64,000 bases of DNA. Origin: a virus. Lineage: Duplodnaviria; Heunggongvirae; Uroviricota; Caudoviricetes. The notes under the pieces are model-generated. The model was not told where the DNA came from. It did not search any database and saw only the letters and a list, made by a program, of their open reading frames with translations. Made by a program: the position numbers and the translations under genes. Shown piece by piece: positions 20,061 to 43,455 of this stretch (position 1 is its first letter; the number at the start of each line of letters is the position of its first letter). The stretch spans positions 1 to 64,000 of the IMG/VR virus record IMGVR_UViG_3300012933_000388. One strand, given 5' to 3'.

Positions 20061-20604
20061 TCGAGTTTCAAAACTGAGTAAGCAAGCGATGGAGTATGCT
20101 GCAGAGCAGTATGGTCCTCAACGTGCTGGCGAGATGGTGTGGGATCCTCTAACATACGATCGTAAGTTCGCTGAGCTGATCGCAGCGGATTGTATTGCGA
20201 TGATTCAATTGCACATGCCACGCAATGGTGTTAGCTCGCCAGAGAATGTAATATCCAAACGCCATATCAACAACATCGCTGACCTATATGGTGTCGCATT
20301 ACCGCTACCTGCATCAGCGTATGAGGATCAGATTGCTAACATCATGGCTGGAGCTGATGCGATGGCAGGCGATGGTGGTTATAGTGAAGCTAGTCTGAAG
20401 ACTCCCCAATTTCTAGAGACTCAAGCGAGATATGAGGCTTTGTACAGCAAGACGCAAATAACAGCCGAAGCTGTACAACATCTGCGTGAAATGACAGATT
20501 GCCCGATGATGGAATGTAAGAAAGCATTAACAGCATGTAATGGCAACATGGATGAAGCGATGGAGTATTTACGCAAAGGCCGTCAATTCCGGACATACAT
20601 CTAA
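20050..20604 (+). CDS. FAELLxxEC-family protein fused to an EF-Ts N-terminal (TS-N/UBA-like) domain
   Basis: C-terminal ITAEAVQHLREMTDCPMMECKKALTACNGNMDEAMEYLRKG aligns with E. coli EF-Ts [42 protein letters not shown]. N-terminal part carries RKFAELIAADC. Confidence 0.7.
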   Translation: MTTDRVSKLSKQAMEYAAEQYGPQRAGEMVWDPLTYDRKFAELIAADCIAMIQLHMPRNGVSSPENVISKRHINNIADLYGVALPLPASAYEDQIANIMAGADAMAGDGGYSEASLKTPQFLETQARYEALYSKTQITAEAVQHLREMTDCPMMECKKALTACNGNMDEAMEYLRKGRQFRTYI

Positions 20605-24105: not shown

Positions 24106-24372
24106 ATGAACGGAAAAATCTTTGTCATAGCTGGTACCTATGATCAATTCAATATATTTCGCAGAACACTTGCAGGTACGATGATTGAGGAAAATATCGA
24201 TGTTCGTCTAAACGACATTGTGTACGTTCACAGCGACAACTTGTATGGGTATGAAGACATCTGGGGATACAAAGTCGGGACTTGGCAACAACGAAAAGAC
24301 ATTGATGTTATTTGCATGATGTTGCTCGCCTGCCGAAGCTCAATTGATAATTTTATTGAGGTTGAATTATGA
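24106..24372 (+). CDS. hypothetical protein
   Basis: RBS AAGGA. Confidence 0.5.
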   Translation: MNGKIFVIAGTYDQFNIFRRTLAGTMIEENIDVRLNDIVYVHSDNLYGYEDIWGYKVGTWQQRKDIDVICMMLLACRSSIDNFIEVEL

Positions 24373-25097
24373 AACAACTATACTCACACGAAGTACCAAG
24401 ATGGATGAGAATGCTTGGCGTGACTCGAGTACATAAAGAGTCAATCGATTTCAAATGGGGATACTTTGCTCCTCGTCCATCATTTCAGCTACTATTACAT
24501 CGTGGTGGATACTTTGATTCGCGATATGCTATCAGTATTGCACTAGGCTATGGTGTGTTCCACTTCTACCTTCCGTTCAAAACCAAGCTGAAAGAAGGTT
24601 GTGATTTACCACAGTATGGTATTCATATTCATGGTGATACGTTTTGGATAATGATCGGTGGCGATTATGATGAATCAATTGGTCAGGTTCAGGGTAAGAC
24701 GTGGATTACATGGGACCTACCATTCTTCAGCTATGAGTTCGATGGCCATTGGGTCAAAGACAAACAGCAGCGTTGGGCGCTGATGAAGAACTTTGAATCA
24801 TACGAATTCAAAAAGGATCAAGCATACAAAGAGCAACATCCGTTTACCTATGTTCTCAAAAACGGTACAATACAGGAAAGAACTGCGACTTGTACTATTG
24901 AGAAGCGTAAGTGGCATCGTAAGTGGTTTCCATGGCTGACCCGGGTCAGTGAAGTGATTGATGTTGAGTTCTCTGATGAGGTCGGCGAACGGTCGGGAAG
25001 CTGGAAGGGTGGAACGATTGGGTGTAGCTATGAGCTCGAGCCAGGTGATACGATTGAGAGTTGCCTAAGACGAATGGAAAAGGAAAGAAACTTTTAA
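24369..25097 (+). CDS. hypothetical protein (242 aa)
   Basis: ATGA overlap. Trp/Lys-rich with no motif I recognise. Confidence 0.6.
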   Translation: MKQLYSHEVPRWMRMLGVTRVHKESIDFKWGYFAPRPSFQLLLHRGGYFDSRYAISIALGYGVFHFYLPFKTKLKEGCDLPQYGIHIHGDTFWIMIGGDYDESIGQVQGKTWITWDLPFFSYEFDGHWVKDKQQRWALMKNFESYEFKKDQAYKEQHPFTYVLKNGTIQERTATCTIEKRKWHRKWFPWLTRVSEVIDVEFSDEVGERSGSWKGGTIGCSYELEPGDTIESCLRRMEKERNF

Positions 25098-26613: not shown

Positions 26614-27141
26614 TCAATATCTTCTTAGATAGTCCTTAACCTCAGGACTTCTACCCCATACCCAGCCTTCGGGTAATTCGCGCTTTCGCCCCTCTGATCC
26701 AGTAATAGGATGATGACACCACTTCAATCCAGTCGTAGTCGGCTTACCCATACGAGCCATGGCAACAAGAGCCTTACCCATAGCAGACTTACGACTTCCC
26801 CTAGCATTACTAGGCTTACCACGCTTAGCAATAGCCATCTTCGCCTTAGTCTCATCAGACATAGTCTTACCGGTATTAGCTAACTTAACAGCAGCAACCA
26901 TCTTCATCTTCTCATCTTCAGTGAAGTATTTCCATCCCCACTTCTTCTTTACAATAGCATCCTCATAGACATCAGAGACATTATATTGCTTCTTGAGACG
27001 ATCAATAACACTAGCATAATTGCCAGAATCTTTGATCATTGCTACCTTTTCCCATGCCCGACCATGATCGTTGTAAAATTGTTTATCGCCCTTATCGGAC
27101 GTTCTGAGCGTTCTATCCCGGAGGTAAACAGTGATAAGCAT
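26614..27141 (-). CDS. homing-endonuclease-like DNA-binding protein (NUMOD3-type repeats), no recognisable nuclease domain
   Basis: Opposite strand to the surrounding array. GKTMSDETKAKMAIAKRGKP and GSRKSAMGKALVAMARMGKP NUMOD3-like repeats, plus a C-terminal LPEGWVWGR tail as in T4 Seg/Mob proteins. No GIY-YIG or HNH motif is visible. Confidence 0.5.
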   Translation of the reverse strand: MLITVYLRDRTLRTSDKGDKQFYNDHGRAWEKVAMIKDSGNYASVIDRLKKQYNVSDVYEDAIVKKKWGWKYFTEDEKMKMVAAVKLANTGKTMSDETKAKMAIAKRGKPSNARGSRKSAMGKALVAMARMGKPTTTGLKWCHHPITGSEGRKRELPEGWVWGRSPEVKDYLRRY

Positions 27142-28026: not shown

Positions 28027-28146
28027 TCATTCTCCTTCAAATGCATTGTCGCCATATGTGTCAAACTCAGTACCCTGGTTAGCCCAATAGTCGTACTCTT
28101 CACACAGTGCCACTAATTCTTCCAACTCTTGATCGATATTGCTCAT
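28027..28146 (-). CDS. small acidic protein (39 aa)
   Basis: Starts 1 nt after the stop of 28147-28317. MSNIDQELEELVALCEEYDYWANQGTEFDTYGDNAFEGE. Confidence 0.35.
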   Translation of the reverse strand: MSNIDQELEELVALCEEYDYWANQGTEFDTYGDNAFEGE

Positions 28147-28317
28147 TTACTTCCCCTGGTTATAAATGTCGTTTTCTAAATCACAAAACAGCGATTCAGT
28201 GCCATTGACTAGATCTAGTTCACTTTCATCGAAAATGCCTAATCTTTTGCCATGCCAAATCATTCCGAGAACTAACGAGACTTGCTGCTCGTTTAGTGTT
28301 ACTGTGATCTCTTTCAT
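28147..28317 (-). CDS. small hypothetical protein (56 aa)
   Basis: AGGAGA SD 5 nt upstream. First gene after minus-strand promoter 28340-28368. Confidence 0.45.
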   Translation of the reverse strand: MKEITVTLNEQQVSLVLGMIWHGKRLGIFDESELDLVNGTESLFCDLENDIYNQGK

Positions 28318-28339
28318 CGTTATCTCCTATTGAACCACG

Positions 28340-28368
28340 ATTATCTGACAAAAACGAAAGTTGGTCAA
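28340..28368 (-). promoter_or_regulatory. early promoter cassette, minus strand
   Basis: Minus strand reads TTGACC-N17-GATAAT (ttgaccaactttcgtttttgtcagataat), the same family as the plus-strand cassettes. Confidence 0.55.
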
Positions 28369-28528
28369 CATAGGCGATTAGTATCAGACTGAGCTGTACG
28401 CTTATTCTAAAAGTCATTTGTCCGCAGCCGCCGTCCACCCCAGTTGCTTTCGAATGACCCTATTATACATGGTTTTGGGAAGTCGGCAACTAGGCTGTAA
28501 GTATCAGACTAGAGTTGAAGGGTACTGG

Positions 28529-28557
28529 TTGTACAAATTCCAAAACTATTGTACAAT
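28529..28557 (+). promoter_or_regulatory. early promoter cassette (island variant)
   Basis: TTGTAC-N17-TACAAT, spacer aaattccaaaactattg. Confidence 0.5.
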
Positions 28558-28578
28558 AGTGTTTTAGGAGATAAAAAA

Positions 28579-28917
28579 ATGAATAAAGTTGTTTTTGGTT
28601 TTGGTGTGAGTGTTGATTTTATTAAAAAGAATGTTGATTTTGATTTTGAATTTGAGGGTAGTGGTGTATATGAGTTTGTTGGTGGTAGTGGTGAAATATA
28701 TGGTTATGAGAAGATTAGTAATAATAATGAAGTTGAATTGATGAATGTGGATGATATTCTAAATTCTATTGTTGATGAAGATTTTAGTGAAAAAGATATT
28801 AACAAATTGAAAGAGTTTGTTTTTAGTGATTTTGATGATGATTTGGGTTGTGAGAAAATGAGGTATGTTTGTTGTTATGGTGAGGATGATTTTAGAGAAT
28901 ATTATTATGTGAAATAA
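28579..28917 (+). CDS. acidic hypothetical protein encoded by a nearly C-free ORF
   Basis: TAGGAG SD then ATG 28579. Only 3 cytosines in the ORF, and the product lacks A, P, T, H and Q. N-terminal MNKVVFGFGV resembles 29337 and 30209 ORF products. Confidence 0.55.
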   Translation: MNKVVFGFGVSVDFIKKNVDFDFEFEGSGVYEFVGGSGEIYGYEKISNNNEVELMNVDDILNSIVDEDFSEKDINKLKEFVFSDFDDDLGCEKMRYVCCYGEDDFREYYYVK

Positions 28918-28923
28918 TAACAT

Positions 28924-28980
28924 ACTAAAATGTAAGCTTATTTTAAAAAAGTTGTACAAAATTGAAATTTGTATTATAAT
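28924..28980 (+). repeat. 57-nt direct repeat copy 1 containing promoter TTGTAC-N17-TATAAT (28952-28980)
   Basis: actaaaatgtaagcttattttaaaaaagttgtacaaaattgaaatttgtattataat is almost identical to 29246-29303. Confidence 0.8.
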
Positions 28981-29025
28981 ATATTTGTAATTTGATAAAA
29001 TGTAAACTTTTTAAAAGGGGATAGT

Positions 29026-29208
29026 ATGAAAGTAGCAAAAGTTGTGTTGAACATTGAAGTGTCAATTAATGAAAATGATTATAATGATTTGATGGCAAAT
29101 TTGAAAGATGTTTGTGGGTTGACTAATAAGTGTGACTTAGAAAATTATATTAGTGATGGTTTAGTGTATGATATTGAGAAAAATAATAGTAAGTTTTTGT
29201 TTGATTAA
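29026..29208 (+). CDS. acidic hypothetical protein (C-poor ORF)
   Basis: AAGGGGA SD. 6 cytosines in 183 nt. Confidence 0.5.
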   Translation: MKVAKVVLNIEVSINENDYNDLMANLKDVCGLTNKCDLENYISDGLVYDIEKNNSKFLFD

Positions 29209-29214
29209 AAGTGG

Positions 29215-29238
29215 GAGGGACACGAAAGTGTCCTTTCT
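29215..29238 (+). terminator. rho-independent terminator
   Basis: GGGACAC-gaaa-GTGTCC followed by tttct. Confidence 0.55.
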
Positions 29239-29245
29239 ATACTTT

Positions 29246-29303
29246 ACTAAAATGTAAGCTTATTTGAAAAAAAGTTGTACAAAATTGAAATTTGTATTAT
29301 AAT
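29246..29303 (+). repeat. 58-nt direct repeat copy 2 containing promoter TTGTAC-N17-TATAAT (29275-29303)
   Basis: Differs from copy 1 by one substitution and one extra A. Confidence 0.8.
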
Positions 29304-29336
29304 TGGTTTTCTGTTTAAATGAAAAAGGAATTTGAA

Positions 29337-29714
29337 ATGAATACAAAAGTGTTTAGTTTTGGTGTGGATGAAGATTCGTTAACTTTTGAAACAGAATTTG
29401 ATTCTTTAGAGTCTTATTTTAAAGTGGAAGGAATTCGCTATTGTGGCTATTTCTTAGACAAATATAATACTGAGGTAGTCAATAGTGTTACTGTTCAAGA
29501 TAAAGAGGAACTTTTTGATTATGATGAAGGTGAGTTAGAATTAGCTAAGTTTGATGAAATGGTAGCTAAGTATGATTCATTTTTGAAAAATAATAGTGAT
29601 TATGTGTTAGTCAATTATTGTATTGAATATGATATTTCTTGGATATTAATGAGTAAAGCTGATTATGCTAAGTTTTTAGAATTGTGTGAACTAGAAGTAG
29701 CAAACGAAGAATAA
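29337..29714 (+). CDS. acidic hypothetical protein, paralog of 28579-28917
   Basis: AAAAGGAA SD then ATG 29337. MNTKVFSFGVDEDS parallels MNKVVFGFGVSVDF. Confidence 0.55.
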   Translation: MNTKVFSFGVDEDSLTFETEFDSLESYFKVEGIRYCGYFLDKYNTEVVNSVTVQDKEELFDYDEGELELAKFDEMVAKYDSFLKNNSDYVLVNYCIEYDISWILMSKADYAKFLELCELEVANEE

Positions 29715-29718
29715 AATT

Positions 29719-29742
29719 GGGAACCGAAAGGTTCCCTTTTTT
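29719..29742 (+). terminator. rho-independent terminator
   Basis: GGGAACC-gaaa-GGTTCCC followed by tttttt. Confidence 0.75.
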
Positions 29743-29751
29743 ATCTCTATC

Positions 29752-29777
29752 GGAAACAAAAGTGCCAATCGCCCCCG
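29752..29777. repeat. GGAAACAAAA motif copy 3
   Basis: GGAAACAAAAGTGCCAATCGCCCCC, in the same orientation as copies at 27661 and 27695. Confidence 0.7.
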
Positions 29778-29810
29778 GCCGAGTAAGCTTACACTTTGAT
29801 TGGTTATTGG

Positions 29811-29839
29811 TTGACCAAATTCCAAAACTGTGTGATAAT
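29811..29839 (+). promoter_or_regulatory. early promoter cassette
   Basis: TTGACC-N17-GATAAT, preceded by ttggttattgg. Confidence 0.6.
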
Positions 29840-29868
29840 TCAGTCATCGATTAAATGAAAGGTCTGTT

Positions 29869-30132
29869 ATGACAAAGTTTTTGGTTGAGGTTGTTTCGAT
29901 TGAAGATGGTGAGTATTATTCTGATAACAATGTTTCTGGATCTACTGTGAATGTGACATTACAACGTGGTAGTGACTTTGCTAGTTGTGATCAGATTTTG
30001 TTTTGGGAAGCAACTGATCAAGAAGAGTTAAACGATCTGTTCGATGAGTGGGTCGATTTGGCTATCGGTGGTGAGGAAGGCTATAGTGCTATGATCACTG
30101 AAAATGGTGTTACAAAAATGTATTCTCAATAA
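29869..30132 (+). CDS. hypothetical acidic early protein
   Basis: Single ORF between two cassettes. SD AAAGG. Confidence 0.6.
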   Translation: MTKFLVEVVSIEDGEYYSDNNVSGSTVNVTLQRGSDFASCDQILFWEATDQEELNDLFDEWVDLAIGGEEGYSAMITENGVTKMYSQ

Positions 30133-30208: not shown

Positions 30209-30517
30209 ATGTCATTCAAGTTCGGTGTTTCTTACAACTGTGAAGTTGGTAGCAATTGTGTTGGTGGAGCAGATGATGGTTATTACAGCACTGATATGCT
30301 TGGAAACGATTTGGGCAAGATTTGTTTACACATTCAAGCAAAAGAAGCAGATCCTGATATGACATTGGTACTTAACGATGACAACTTCATCGGCGAACAA
30401 TGTTCACAAGGTGGCAAGGTTGTGGCTTATTTTGGCTACGATTATAACGGCGATGGTGAATTCTATCCAACTATCGTGATTTACGAAGATCCTGTCGACA
30501 TTGAGATTATCGAATAA
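30209..30517 (+). CDS. hypothetical acidic early protein
   Basis: AAAGGAG SD. N-terminal MSFKFGVS resembles the island ORFs. Confidence 0.6.
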   Translation: MSFKFGVSYNCEVGSNCVGGADDGYYSTDMLGNDLGKICLHIQAKEADPDMTLVLNDDNFIGEQCSQGGKVVAYFGYDYNGDGEFYPTIVIYEDPVDIEIIE

Positions 30518-42882: not shown

Positions 42883-43025
42883 TGAAAAGCATGAAGCAAG
42901 CAGCTAATTTTAAGATGCGTGGTAGAATTACCATGCGTTGCCATTGCCGCTGCTGCGAGGTTTTTAATCCGAAGTGGGCATATCGTATGAAAATGGCTGC
43001 CAAGGATATAAAAGAATTGTTGTAA
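42882..43025 (+). CDS. small basic Cys-rich protein (47 aa)
   Basis: TAATG junction. CHCRCC motif. Ends immediately before the tmRNA acceptor piece. Confidence 0.35.
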   Translation: MKSMKQAANFKMRGRITMRCHCRCCEVFNPKWAYRMKMAAKDIKELL

Positions 43026-43080
43026 TCCCTTCAAAGAGAAGGACTTCTGGACGCGGGTTCGACTCCCGCCATCTCCACCA
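43026..43080 (+). ncRNA. ssrA: tmRNA acceptor piece (3' half of a permuted ssrA gene); 5' boundary uncertain
   Basis: GCGGG-TTCGACT-CCCGC T-arm, 3' acceptor strand CATCTCC and encoded ACCA (43077-43080). Complementary to GGGGATG at 43219. Confidence 0.8.
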
Positions 43081-43218
43081 AAAGTAATCACCGAAGTGAC
43101 TAGGAATAAAAGCGGTCATCGAGTTAGGGCATCAGGTCAAGACTGTGTTAGTAGTGTGGACAGCCTCCCTAACCGACCACTAAGGCGAGTGGTTGAGAAT
43201 GCAACGATTACTTTTGAT
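43081..43218 (+). other. structured intervening segment of the permuted tmRNA precursor
   Basis: AAAGTAATC (43081-89) pairs with GATTACTTT (43206-14). Internal helices GTTAGGG/CCCTAAC and ACCACT/AGTGGT. Confidence 0.6.
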
Positions 43219-43455
43219 GGGGATGCCATGGTTTCGACAGGGGTAGATATTAGAGACGGCAACACGGTAGGCGATGACCGCAAATCAAGCAAATAAAAGT
43301 AACTGCAAACGAAAGCTCTTACGCATTGGCAGCCTAAACGCTGACTAGGGTTTCGGATGGTTTCCTCGTAACAGAATAACCATCCACTAATATATCAGAC
43401 ACGTTGCCCATTAGAGGCCCTGTATGGTCTAGCAGTACCATCAAAGAAACTGCTA
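43219..43455 (+). ncRNA. ssrA: tmRNA coding piece (5' half of the permuted ssrA gene); 3' boundary uncertain
   Basis: GGGGATGCCATGGTTTCGACAGGGG 5' end. Tag ORF GCAAACGAAAGCTCTTACGCATTGGCAGCCTAA (43305-43337, ANESSYALAA*). Helix 43355-62/43378-85 and H-type pseudoknot 43424-43455. Confidence 0.8.

Follow-up and report, generated by a model that had tools for sequence, protein, structure and literature searches.

Why should the coding strand of a small group of phage genes be nearly devoid of a single nucleotide, cytosine, when the DNA on either side of it is of normal composition? In the window – the whole 64-kb stretch of viral DNA analysed here – segments of 300 nt contain on average 20.3% C (sd 3.7%), yet positions 28561-28920 comprise 117 A, 3 C, 93 G and 147 T in 360 nt, and ORF2 (29026-29208) has 6 C in 183 nt; on recounting, both C figures are exactly those of the original prediction. 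The probability of three or fewer C in 360 nt at 20.3% C is 4e-31 and, when conditioned on the 96 G+C actually present at 28561-28920, 1e-21, so that the depletion reflects a strand asymmetry and not plain AT-richness, as had been predicted. All 25 of the lowest-C 300-nt segments of the 64 kb lie within 28401-29851. The longest C-free run (28555-28758, plus strand, 204 nt) takes in the 5' UTR, the ribosome-binding site and codons 1-60 of ORF1; C-free runs outside the island reach 56 nt at most, and no run without G exceeds 39 nt.

Neither an artefact nor a familiar type of skew accounts for this pattern. An assembly error is ruled out by identical sequence in independent datasets, with normal flanks on the same contigs: over the 933 nt of window positions 28042-28974, a Logan contig (L001, run ERR3489826) shows 0 mismatches, and a 105-kb JGI contig carries the ORF1 protein as well. 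Ordinary GC skew linked to replication or transcription is moderate – typically below about 0.2-0.3 – and extends across many kilobases or across genes of the same orientation; it is ruled out by the sharp transitions seen here and by a (G-C)/(G+C) skew of 0.94 at 28561-28920, compared with 1-kb values that mostly lie between 0 and 0.2 in the window.

The depleted genes, all on the plus strand, differ in degree. ORF1 (28579-28917, 112 aa) has 3 C in 339 nt, and the first C beyond its stop codon is at 28921, 4 nt downstream; ORF2 encodes 60 aa; ORF3 (29337-29714, 125 aa, or 131 aa with the ATG at 29319 as start) contains 26 C among its 378 nt (6.9%); and ORF4 (29869-30132, 87 aa), the last depleted gene, has 11% C overall, its homologues in relatives having 8-9%. 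The C content at codon position 3 rises from 0.9% in ORF1 through 3.3% in ORF2 and 5.6% in ORF3 to 9.1% in ORF4 and then jumps to 26, 24 and 31% in ORF5, ORF6 and ORF7 (21.8% in the large genes). The milder bias originally noted further on is thus to be corrected: there is a depleted block at about 28555-30132 and not a smooth gradient.

This block is divided into promoter-led units. A divergent intergenic region of ordinary C content (28318-28529), in which the motif TAGGCnnTnAGTATCAGACT is present twice (repeat D8), separates it from leftward early genes; a promoter scan found in it a promoter-like site on the minus strand (TTGACC-17-GATAAT, 28368-28340). The ORF1 promoter (TTGTAC-17-TACAAT, 28529-28557) contains 5 C, the final one at 28554, within the -10 hexamer; the C-free run of ORF1 thus begins inside the -10 box, and a like boundary is seen in the related contigs L020 and L023. 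ORF2 is served by the first copy of a promoter module (TACTAAAATGTAAGCTTATTT..AAAAAAGTTGTACAAAATTGAAATTTGTATTATAAT, 28923-28980; repeats D2 and D5), with no terminator between ORF1 and this copy in the window, and ORF3 by the second copy (29245-29303; repeat D5); the two share a 36-nt core at 100% identity (28945-28980 and 29268-29303) and a 28-nt upstream element. Behind ORF2, the C of the block reappear – every one in the stem – at a stem-loop (GGGACAC-GAAA-GTGTCC, 29217-29233) that was not called by the terminator scan because of its weak T-run; L024 has an equivalent hairpin, with a T-run, after its ORF1-family gene. ORF3 ends in a called intrinsic terminator (GGGAACC-GAAA-GGTTCCC followed by a T-run, 29719-29736), and ORF4 is served by an early promoter of a second class (TTGACC-17-GATAAT; 29811-30132 including ORF4), present in three copies, before ORF4-6 (repeat D1).

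The first two units are an addition. Comparison by blastn with the closest relative (L005), together with gene maps and upstream sequences of other relatives, delimits a 734-bp insertion (28511-29244) consisting of an ORF1 cassette and an ORF2 cassette, which is missing from L005, whose flanks are 92-97% identical, and from L002-4 and L008-11. The end of the insertion falls in the repeated promoter module, of which relatives without the insertion carry copy 2 alone.

The ORF1, ORF2 and ORF3 families each have members in freshwater, marine and other metagenomes, and in distant relatives they are co-located as promoter-to-hairpin blocks of up to 2.4 kb and up to seven genes with 0-1 C. At least four more, unrelated small-protein families occur in such units of related T4-type phages. 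One phage, covered by two contigs with a 30-nt overlap (L020 and L013), has four near-C-free ORFs (0-3 C each) ahead of an ORF3 homologue; zero-C stretches extend over 875 nt in L016, 1,472 nt in L018 (from Tara) and 1,751 nt in L022; and L023 has 1 C in 2,447 nt spanning 7 ORFs, between flanks of 21-25% C. L017 has C at its two ends, in what look like random-amplification (SISPA) primer sequences. Pooled, the blocks contain 21 C in 9,353 nt, and no other 2- to 4-mer is strongly avoided in them.

The limits of the C-free state in these blocks follow those of the putative transcript. C is kept out of 5' UTRs, coding sequence, the spacers between genes and the internal promoters, and persists in the first promoter, itself untranscribed, and in the hairpin that closes the block. 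In three lineages the C-free stretch begins at the -10 box or at the transcription start of that first promoter, whose -35 box or spacer has C; the internal promoters, which are transcribed through, have none (TTGATT-17-TAGAAT); and C returns in the closing hairpin or within 4-14 nt of the last stop codon. Marine-type arrays have no internal hairpins. A 'C-less cassette', transcribed independently of CTP, would have no C between its transcription start and the end of its last coding region. With starts placed by promoter consensus only, L018, L022 and L016 (0 C) and L023 (1 C) match this description or come close, as does ORF1 of the window (3 C), whereas ORF2 (6 C) and ORF3 (26 C) do not.

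Outside these related contigs the families are hard to find. Searches of 50,697 phage records (megablast with the island; tblastn with ORF1, ORF3 and a marine-type ORF3 homologue) gave no match, a PHROG scan of the island ORFs assigned no family, the C-free families were not found in GTDB genomes, and IMG/VR yielded a single 222-kb relative, with ORF1, the ORF3 family, the marine-type promoter pattern and another C-free family.

The proteins themselves appear to be genuine and constrained. Given the composition of ORF1, its reading frame would be open by accident with P = 2e-6. Its product is acidic (27 D/E compared with 11 K/R) and limited, exactly as predicted, to 14 amino acids, with no A, P, T, H or Q (nor W); AlphaFold predicts a confident alpha/beta fold (pLDDT 90), for which no match was found in the PDB. 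Members of its family are 44-71% identical and all written in the C-free alphabet, the closest (71%) likewise having 3 C and the one in L024 having 0 C in 345 nt; dN/dS is 0.5-0.7. ORF2, with a dN/dS of 0.26 at a dS of 1.26, has a homologue (L018:699-869) on a wholly C-free Tara Oceans contig. ORF3, also predicted to fold confidently (pLDDT 92), belongs to a family of 25 clusters, at least 15 of which have zero A/P/T/H/Q, and in the family tree zero-C lineages lie on both sides of the window clade. The C-free state therefore looks ancestral in this family, which would make the window's ORF3 a relaxed member and no parent of ORF1.

Codon choice in 25 genes (2,393 codons) indicates a constraint on the nucleotides, with the proteins still under selection. 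Only 6 codons for F, Y, N, D, C, I, V and G in total end in C, compared with 35-50% in neighbouring genes; Ser is encoded by AGT in 152 of 155 cases, Leu by TTR in 152 of 153 and Arg by AGR in all 42. With dS values of 0.23-1.26, synonymous sites have turned over without taking up C, and dN/dS values of 0.25-0.75 indicate purifying selection on the ORFs, which are intact. The 24 sense codons that lack C specify 15 amino acids, leaving out Ala, Pro, Thr, His and Gln. Conserved Ser residues are preserved through a switch from TCN to AGT, Ala is replaced by N, S, E, K or R and Gln by D, N or E; overall, lost residues give way mainly to E, D, N and S, and composition gains E, V, F, N and D with no rise in Y, C, W, I or L. 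This pattern points to replacements that are functional rather than mutational. Avoidance of particular tRNAs does not explain it, as NNC codons are missing although synonymous NNC/NNU pairs use common tRNAs.

The reading that we favour, with a probability of roughly 0.55, is that the island is the window's copy of conserved, mobile immediate-early cassettes whose transcripts are held cytidine-free by long-term purifying selection. Selection for a C-free mRNA was one of the possibilities raised at the outset, and it is the one that the evidence supports best. We infer the 'immediate early' timing solely from sigma-70-like promoters and from position. Each C in a cassette RNA would be costly to fitness, as a point of attack at the time when the genes must act. 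The most likely agents would be of two kinds: RNA synthesis might be blocked specifically at C, by a CTP analogue that terminates chains (viperin/ddhCTP type) or by scarcity of CTP; or mRNA might be cut by endoribonucleases that require C, such as the MazF (ACA), ChpBK (ACY) and MqsR (GCU) types. The cassette products could plausibly be counter-defence or take-over proteins, needed under C-directed attack. ORF1 and ORF2 of the window came in as cassettes between repeated promoter modules, in a way that resembles PeSL-mediated shuffling.

Several observations narrow this scheme or strain it. We know of no defence that depletes CTP. A total lack of CTP would stall the polymerase 4 nt past the ORF1 stop codon, making it hard for translation to be completed, so that only a model of risk per C fits. 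Known mRNA interferases read motifs and not any C, and do not obviously explain absolute exclusion: ACA, ACY and GCU are necessarily absent from C-free blocks, and C is also absent in all other contexts. Furthermore, the tolerance of 7-11% C by ORF3 and ORF4 of the window counts against a uniform constraint.

An alternative that we consider unlikely acts at the DNA level: the non-template strand, exposed as single-stranded DNA in a transcription bubble or R-loop, would have its cytosines deaminated chemically or by a host single-stranded-DNA cytidine deaminase. The C-free state would then be either a mutational end-point or a secondary adaptation that removes the target, like APOBEC footprints in animal viruses. 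C is indeed lost in a strand-specific manner from promoter to terminator, T is the chief gainer in ORF1 (41.6% compared with 27.8%), and neutral decay would account for the C-free non-coding spacers without selection. However, ORF3 has 26 largely conserved C behind a promoter core identical over 36 nt to that of ORF2, and ORF5-7 have normal C behind promoters closer to consensus, which indicates an effect that is gene-specific and not promoter-specific; and the ORF1 promoter still has a C in its -10 box (TACAAT), which is melted and would come closer to consensus through a C-to-T change. The richness in V, F, I, Y and C first read as products of C-to-T change does not fit the replacements observed: they do not bear the signature expected of such change (A>V, T>I, H>Y, R>C/W, Q>stop), as Y, C, W, I and L are not enriched and the gains are in E, D, N, V and F, and the ORFs are intact. 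To lose A/P/T/H/Q completely from 2,393 constrained codons would, we infer, take a per-site mutation rate rivalling selection on the proteins, which is hard to square with families that are stable at 31-98% identity. A Pfam scan of 54 of the window's ORFs of at least 100 aa found no deaminase. In its recent or generic transcription-coupled form, as first proposed, strand-specific hypermutation is further contradicted by the C-free alphabet of ORF1 homologues at 44-71% identity and by the zero-A/P/T/H/Q clusters that bracket the window clade of ORF3.

Other benefits at the RNA level – evasion of Rho, or an unstructured and highly translatable mRNA – are a rather improbable cause. Rho, which silences transcripts that are foreign or poorly translated, binds at rut sites rich in C and poor in G; RNA that has G and lacks C is the reverse of such a site, and the C-free blocks, with 0-1% C and 26-36% G, have no tract of this kind. 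Predicted structure is also low: the calculated folding energy is -0.13 kcal/mol/nt for the ORF1 and ORF2 mRNAs and -0.10 for L018, about half the window average of -0.27 (sd 0.03), and among 150 control segments the weakest value is -0.16. Nevertheless, both benefits would saturate before zero C, leaving the purge of every synonymous NNC over 2.4 kb unexplained. Removal of G would be the more effective way to unfold RNA, because it also abolishes G-U pairs, and yet G is kept; conversely, turning half of the G into C at equal GC content shifts the folding energy merely from -0.13 to -0.17.

That the island was acquired horizontally from a genome whose composition is very different, or is a duplicate of ORF3 that recently underwent C-to-T hypermutation, is exceedingly improbable, and we reject recent hypermutation and foreign-genome import as its origin: ORF1 and ORF2 are inserted relative to the closest relative, as import would have it, but families and composition alike belong to cassettes seen only in related phage contigs, and we know of no genome with a C-free strand that could be the donor. 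As for duplication, the 5' ends of ORF1 and ORF3 do have 32 of 42 nt in common (repeat D4), but other ORF1-family members start with MKKVVFEKSVSV, so that the common end reflects local conversion or chance. The paralogy first proposed does not hold, as the likeness of the two proteins covers 10 of 22 residues at the N-terminus only (pairwise E = 0.003), the family profiles are unrelated (hhalign probability 0.8%), and the closest homologue of ORF1 is as C-free as ORF1 itself, which speaks against a hypermutated copy of an unmutated parent. Comparison of ORF1 with the ORF at 30209, proposed as a further relative, gave nothing.

Three further processes can be set aside. RNA C-to-U editing is disfavoured as the agent because the non-coding spacers are C-free too; avoidance of restriction sites or PAMs fails since a protected patch of 1-2 kb is unable to shield a whole genome; and an R-loop replication origin does not fit blocks in which one constrained protein gene follows another and every gene has a ribosome-binding site.

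More tentatively, and somewhat short of an even chance, selection against cytidine may be a property of the lineage: these T4-type phages might write immediate-early counter-defence or take-over genes in an alphabet of A, G and U, with a widespread C-directed process making each cytidine a liability. It may belong to the immunity of the host or to the shut-off of the host by the phage itself, directed at CTP or at cytidines in RNA. If so, the cassettes would be markers of a C-directed process that their products probably inhibit. Were selection on cytidine indeed the cause, long C-free sense runs would serve as a simple sequence signature for finding the genes involved, and it would represent an undescribed layer of phage–host conflict that targets one ribonucleotide, as well as a case in which selection at the nucleotide level is able to override amino-acid usage completely over long periods. 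Natural protein families that are predicted to fold, and that evolve, on 15 amino acids also bear on reduced-alphabet design and on the early evolution of the code.

How do these cassettes compare with known systems? In the literature that we searched on cytosine-free or C-less phage genes, CTP depletion and C-directed mechanisms against phages, the phenomenon is not reported, and conserved C-free cassettes have no precedent there. The early region of phage T4 (NC_000866, bases 1-50000) resembles the window in genome organisation and in the use of host RNA polymerase, and its sense strands are moderately C-poor (14.6%). However, its minimum is 9.3% sense C per 300-nt segment, at dmd – the antitoxin against the RnlA/LsoA RNases – and its longest C-free sense run is 67 nt, nothing near 0-1% C.

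Deamination of the APOBEC/AID type and transcription-associated mutagenesis share with the cassettes that, beyond a promoter, the non-template strand alone loses C. The footprints of these processes are incomplete, favour certain motifs and show stop codons and the amino-acid changes typical of C-to-T, whereas depletion in the phage cassettes is absolute, gene-specific and ancient, without C-to-T products.

In engineered single-protein production, mRNAs without ACA are said to resist MazF. There, as here, a targeted sequence is absent and a functional protein is kept by synonymous or conservative recoding; but that work removes one tri- to pentanucleotide motif, whereas here a whole nucleotide is gone from operons of up to seven genes, with the loss of five amino acids, and the C-free state is natural and conserved.

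T4-type phages transcribe with the host polymerase, and the window phage, which encodes gp33, is of this type; its tmRNA suggests that the host is a betaproteobacterium. Prokaryotic viperins, by contrast, reportedly target transcription of the T7 type (review PMC13276650), which counts against a viperin-type agent here. Host defences that work through cytidine include chain terminators (ddhCTP) made by viperins and dCTP deaminase (PMC13276650). A terminator specific for C would not affect a transcript that has none; dCTP deaminase acts on the precursors of DNA and would be inescapable even for a C-free strand, because its complement requires dCTP.

In structure, the units described here resemble the promoter-early stem-loop (PeSL) cassettes of T4-type phages, reportedly treated by Comeau et al. 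in 2014. These cassettes have been linked to gene shuffling (Arbiol et al. 2010, PMC2839356), and both systems consist of small ORFan genes in a hyperplastic early region, with a repeated strong sigma-70-like promoter ahead. As to the stem-loop joined to the promoter in PeSL cassettes, the window has a hairpin after ORF2 and a clear terminator after ORF3, none stands between ORF1 and the next promoter (a strong stem requires C), and marine-type arrays lack internal ones. The two differ in that the abstract of that paper mentions no compositional constraint, whereas here cargo, spacers and internal promoters all exclude one nucleotide. As with PeSL cassettes, presence and absence of the units in close relatives take the form of indels bounded by promoter repeats.

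A direct count of positions 28561–28920 gives A 117, C 3, G 93 and T 147, in a window whose mean C content is 20.3%; there are six C in the 183 nt of ORF2 (29026–29208) and 26 in the 378 nt of ORF3 (29337–29714), and all C counts of the original prediction were reproduced exactly. The probability of at most three C in 360 nt is 4e-31, and still 1e-21 when conditioned on the observed 96 G+C, so the effect is one of strand asymmetry rather than AT-richness. The 25 segments of 300 nt poorest in C across the 64 kb all fall within 28401–29851, and the longest C-free run (204 nt, 28555–28758) opens directly after the C within the −10 hexamer TACAAT of the promoter of ORF1 (28579–28917, 112 aa). Codon-position-3 C rises from 0.9 through 3.3 and 5.6 to 9.1% along ORF1 to ORF4 (29869–30132) and stands at 26, 24 and 31% in the next three genes, ORF5–7: the depleted block covers about 28555–30132 and ends abruptly. 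ORF1 uses only 14 amino acids – Ala, Pro, Thr, His, Gln and Trp are all absent – and, given its composition, would be open by accident with P = 2e-6. An artefact is excluded, since a Logan contig of independent origin (L001, run ERR3489826) matches the window without a difference over 933 nt and the ORF1 protein is also present on a 105-kb JGI contig.

The source is a divergent T4-type myovirus encoding gp32, gp59, the gp33 late co-activator, gp5, gp25, gp53 and the baseplate proteins gp6 and gp8, with Caulobacter phage Cr30 as its closest cultured relative by gp6 (40% identity). The island starts a rightward block of small ORFs adjoining a divergent intergenic region, each with its own predicted sigma-70-like promoter and good ribosome-binding site; one class of promoter module has a 36-nt core identical before ORF2 and ORF3, while a second precedes ORF4–6. 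In relatives L002–L011 the divergent region is followed directly by an ORF3 homologue, and compared with the closest of them, L005, the window carries a 734-bp insertion (28511–29244) whose end-point is the repeated promoter module. Insertion at a repeated promoter is the pattern described for the promoter-early stem-loop (PeSL) cassettes of T4-type phages (PMC2839356). Import from a very different genome, as once proposed, holds only in the form of this cassette insertion.

Several neighbouring features deserve mention. The motif TAGGCnnTnAGTATCAGACT occurs twice in the divergent region upstream of the island (28371–28390 and 28491–28510, 120 nt apart), and is found in L005 too. One window ORF matches the Pfam CBASS inhibitor Acb3 (E = 1e-55), so the early region around the island carries known anti-defence cargo; by synteny with a 244-aa Acb3-annotated gene (L009:1493–2227), it is probably 24369–25097 (+). 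A 175-aa ORF (26614–27141, −) bordering the hyperplastic region on its left shows weak PHROG matches of the homing-endonuclease/HNH type (E = 1e-4); a gene resembling it lies beside the C-free array of contig L023 (614–1087, − strand). At 42974–43397 (+) lies a permuted, two-piece tmRNA of betaproteobacterial type (Rfam RF01850, 140 bits; RF04321, 147.5 bits; ARAGORN tag peptide VTANESSYALAA), which hints at a betaproteobacterial host. Phage tmRNA rescues ribosomes stuck on truncated mRNAs and may, speculatively, be tied to a theme of transcript truncation.

C-free cassettes recur in other phages. ORF1, an orphan in a word-indexed search, has five homologues (44–71% identity) in an exhaustive phmmer search, with an almost wholly C-free alphabet, and family genes with available DNA are equally C-poor (3 C in 327 nt in L020, none in 345 nt in L024). 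L020 and L013 share a 30-nt overlap and are therefore one phage, which carries four near-C-free ORFs of other cargo (~1 kb) upstream of its ORF3 homologue. More distant ORF3 homologues (37–51% identity) sit in stretches without any C: L016 has 875 nt without C between normal flanks, and L015, L017, L018 (Tara Oceans, 1,472 nt) and L022 (1,751 nt) are essentially C-free contigs. In L023, seven ORFs form a 2,447-nt unit with one C, between flanks of 21–25% C. L018 encodes a clear homologue of ORF2; in both L016 and L017, ORF1-like genes lie downstream of ORF3-like ones, and in L022 one lies upstream. The three window genes are therefore members of a co-travelling set. A profile search returned 25 ORF3-family clusters, at least 15 with zero A/P/T/H/Q, and in a neighbour-joining tree zero-C lineages bracket the window-type clade (3–11 such residues per member), so the C-free state looks ancestral and the window's ORF3 a relaxed member. 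Both ends of L017 (1–17 and 1196–1210) carry GTTTCCCAGTCACGATA, which we take to be a random-amplification (SISPA) primer sequence, so the end C of this otherwise C-free contig is not biological. A second, separate low-C gene in the marine-type contig L016 (4202–4420, 72 aa; local C ~4–5% versus 13–23% around it) indicates that C-depleted early genes may extend beyond the main array.

The paralogies originally proposed find no support, the ORF1 and ORF3 protein families being unrelated. Their 5′ ends (28577–28618 and 29335–29376) do have 32 of 42 nt in common, and other ORF1-family members begin differently (MKKVVFEKSVSV), which points to gene conversion over a local patch, or to chance in a three-letter alphabet. 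Two of the three ORF1 C, at 28766 (TCT, Ser) and 28803 (AAC, Asn), are kept in the 71%-identical L020 homologue (807, 844), though AAC to AAT would be synonymous; the AAC is part of a brief inverted repeat (AACAAA..TTTGTT) with a T-run after it and could have a function.

In the 2,393 codons of 25 C-free genes, just six of those for F, Y, N, D, C, I, V and G end in C, versus 35–50% in neighbouring genes; Ser is AGT in 152/155 (versus 17/98), Leu is TTR in 152/153 (54/124), Arg is AGR in 42/42 (19/109), and A+P+T+H+Q make up 0.2% (21.5%). With substantial dS (0.23–1.26) and dN/dS of 0.25–0.75, synonymous sites thus change between A, G and T without ever becoming C, and the proteins are under purifying selection. 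AlphaFold gave confident folds from shallow alignments (pLDDT 92 for ORF3, 90 for ORF1); no solved structure resembling either model was found, nor any other avoided short motif in the pooled blocks (9,353 nt).

The boundaries of depletion track the predicted transcript: in L020, L023 and the window, C occurs in the −35 box or the spacer of the first, untranscribed promoter, promoters that are read through inside the units are free of C (TTGATT-17-TAGAAT), and C returns in the closing hairpin or 4–14 nt past the last stop codon. These boundaries and the synonymous sites favour selection for C-free mRNA, and we conclude by inference that selection acts against every cytidine of these RNAs. A per-C risk would fit best, with a C-specific chain terminator (for which ddhCTP from viperins is a comparison case; PMC13276650), a rate-limiting CTP pool or C-dependent cleavage as candidate agents.

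The evidence speaks against a standing C-to-T pressure coupled to transcription. Behind a promoter identical to that of ORF2, ORF3 retains its 26 C, many conserved across the clade, and ORF5–7, with promoters nearer consensus than ORF1's, have normal C. Replacements also differ from C-to-T products: conserved Ser is retained via TCN-to-AGT switches, Ala gives way to N/S/E/K/R and Gln to D/N/E, and no enrichment of Y, C, W, I or L is seen; moreover, the melted −10 box still has a C whose change to T would make a better promoter. By inference, erasing five amino acids from constrained proteins would require either that C itself be costly or that mutation at each site be frequent enough to rival functional selection, and a per-site rate of that kind would fit stable families poorly. 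With C returning just 4 nt past the ORF1 stop codon, a complete lack of CTP is a poor fit, and so is RNA C-to-U editing, since the spacers too are free of C. Low secondary structure (predicted folding energy −0.13 versus −0.27 kcal/mol/nt) and Rho evasion cannot explain absolute exclusion, as the benefit of either saturates and G is retained at 26–36%. Recurrence in relatives, the C-free homologues and the ancestral look of the C-free state exclude a recent burst of hypermutation; the strand-specific hypermutation originally put forward is accordingly rejected as stated, with relatives equally C-free and replacements that are not C-to-T products.

Searches for cytosine-free phage genes or C-directed anti-phage mechanisms found no relevant report in a literature covered incompletely. 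The island's cassette architecture matches PeSL shuffling, whereas for its compositional rule no counterpart was found. In the first 50 kb of phage T4 (L021, NC_000866), sense-strand C is lowest in dmd (20371–20553; 17 of 183 nt, 9.3%), which also has the longest sense run free of C, at 67 nt. This gene, whose immediate-early product is the antitoxin that counters the mRNA endonucleases RnlA/LsoA, offers a mild echo of the C-poor pattern in an anti-RNase gene.
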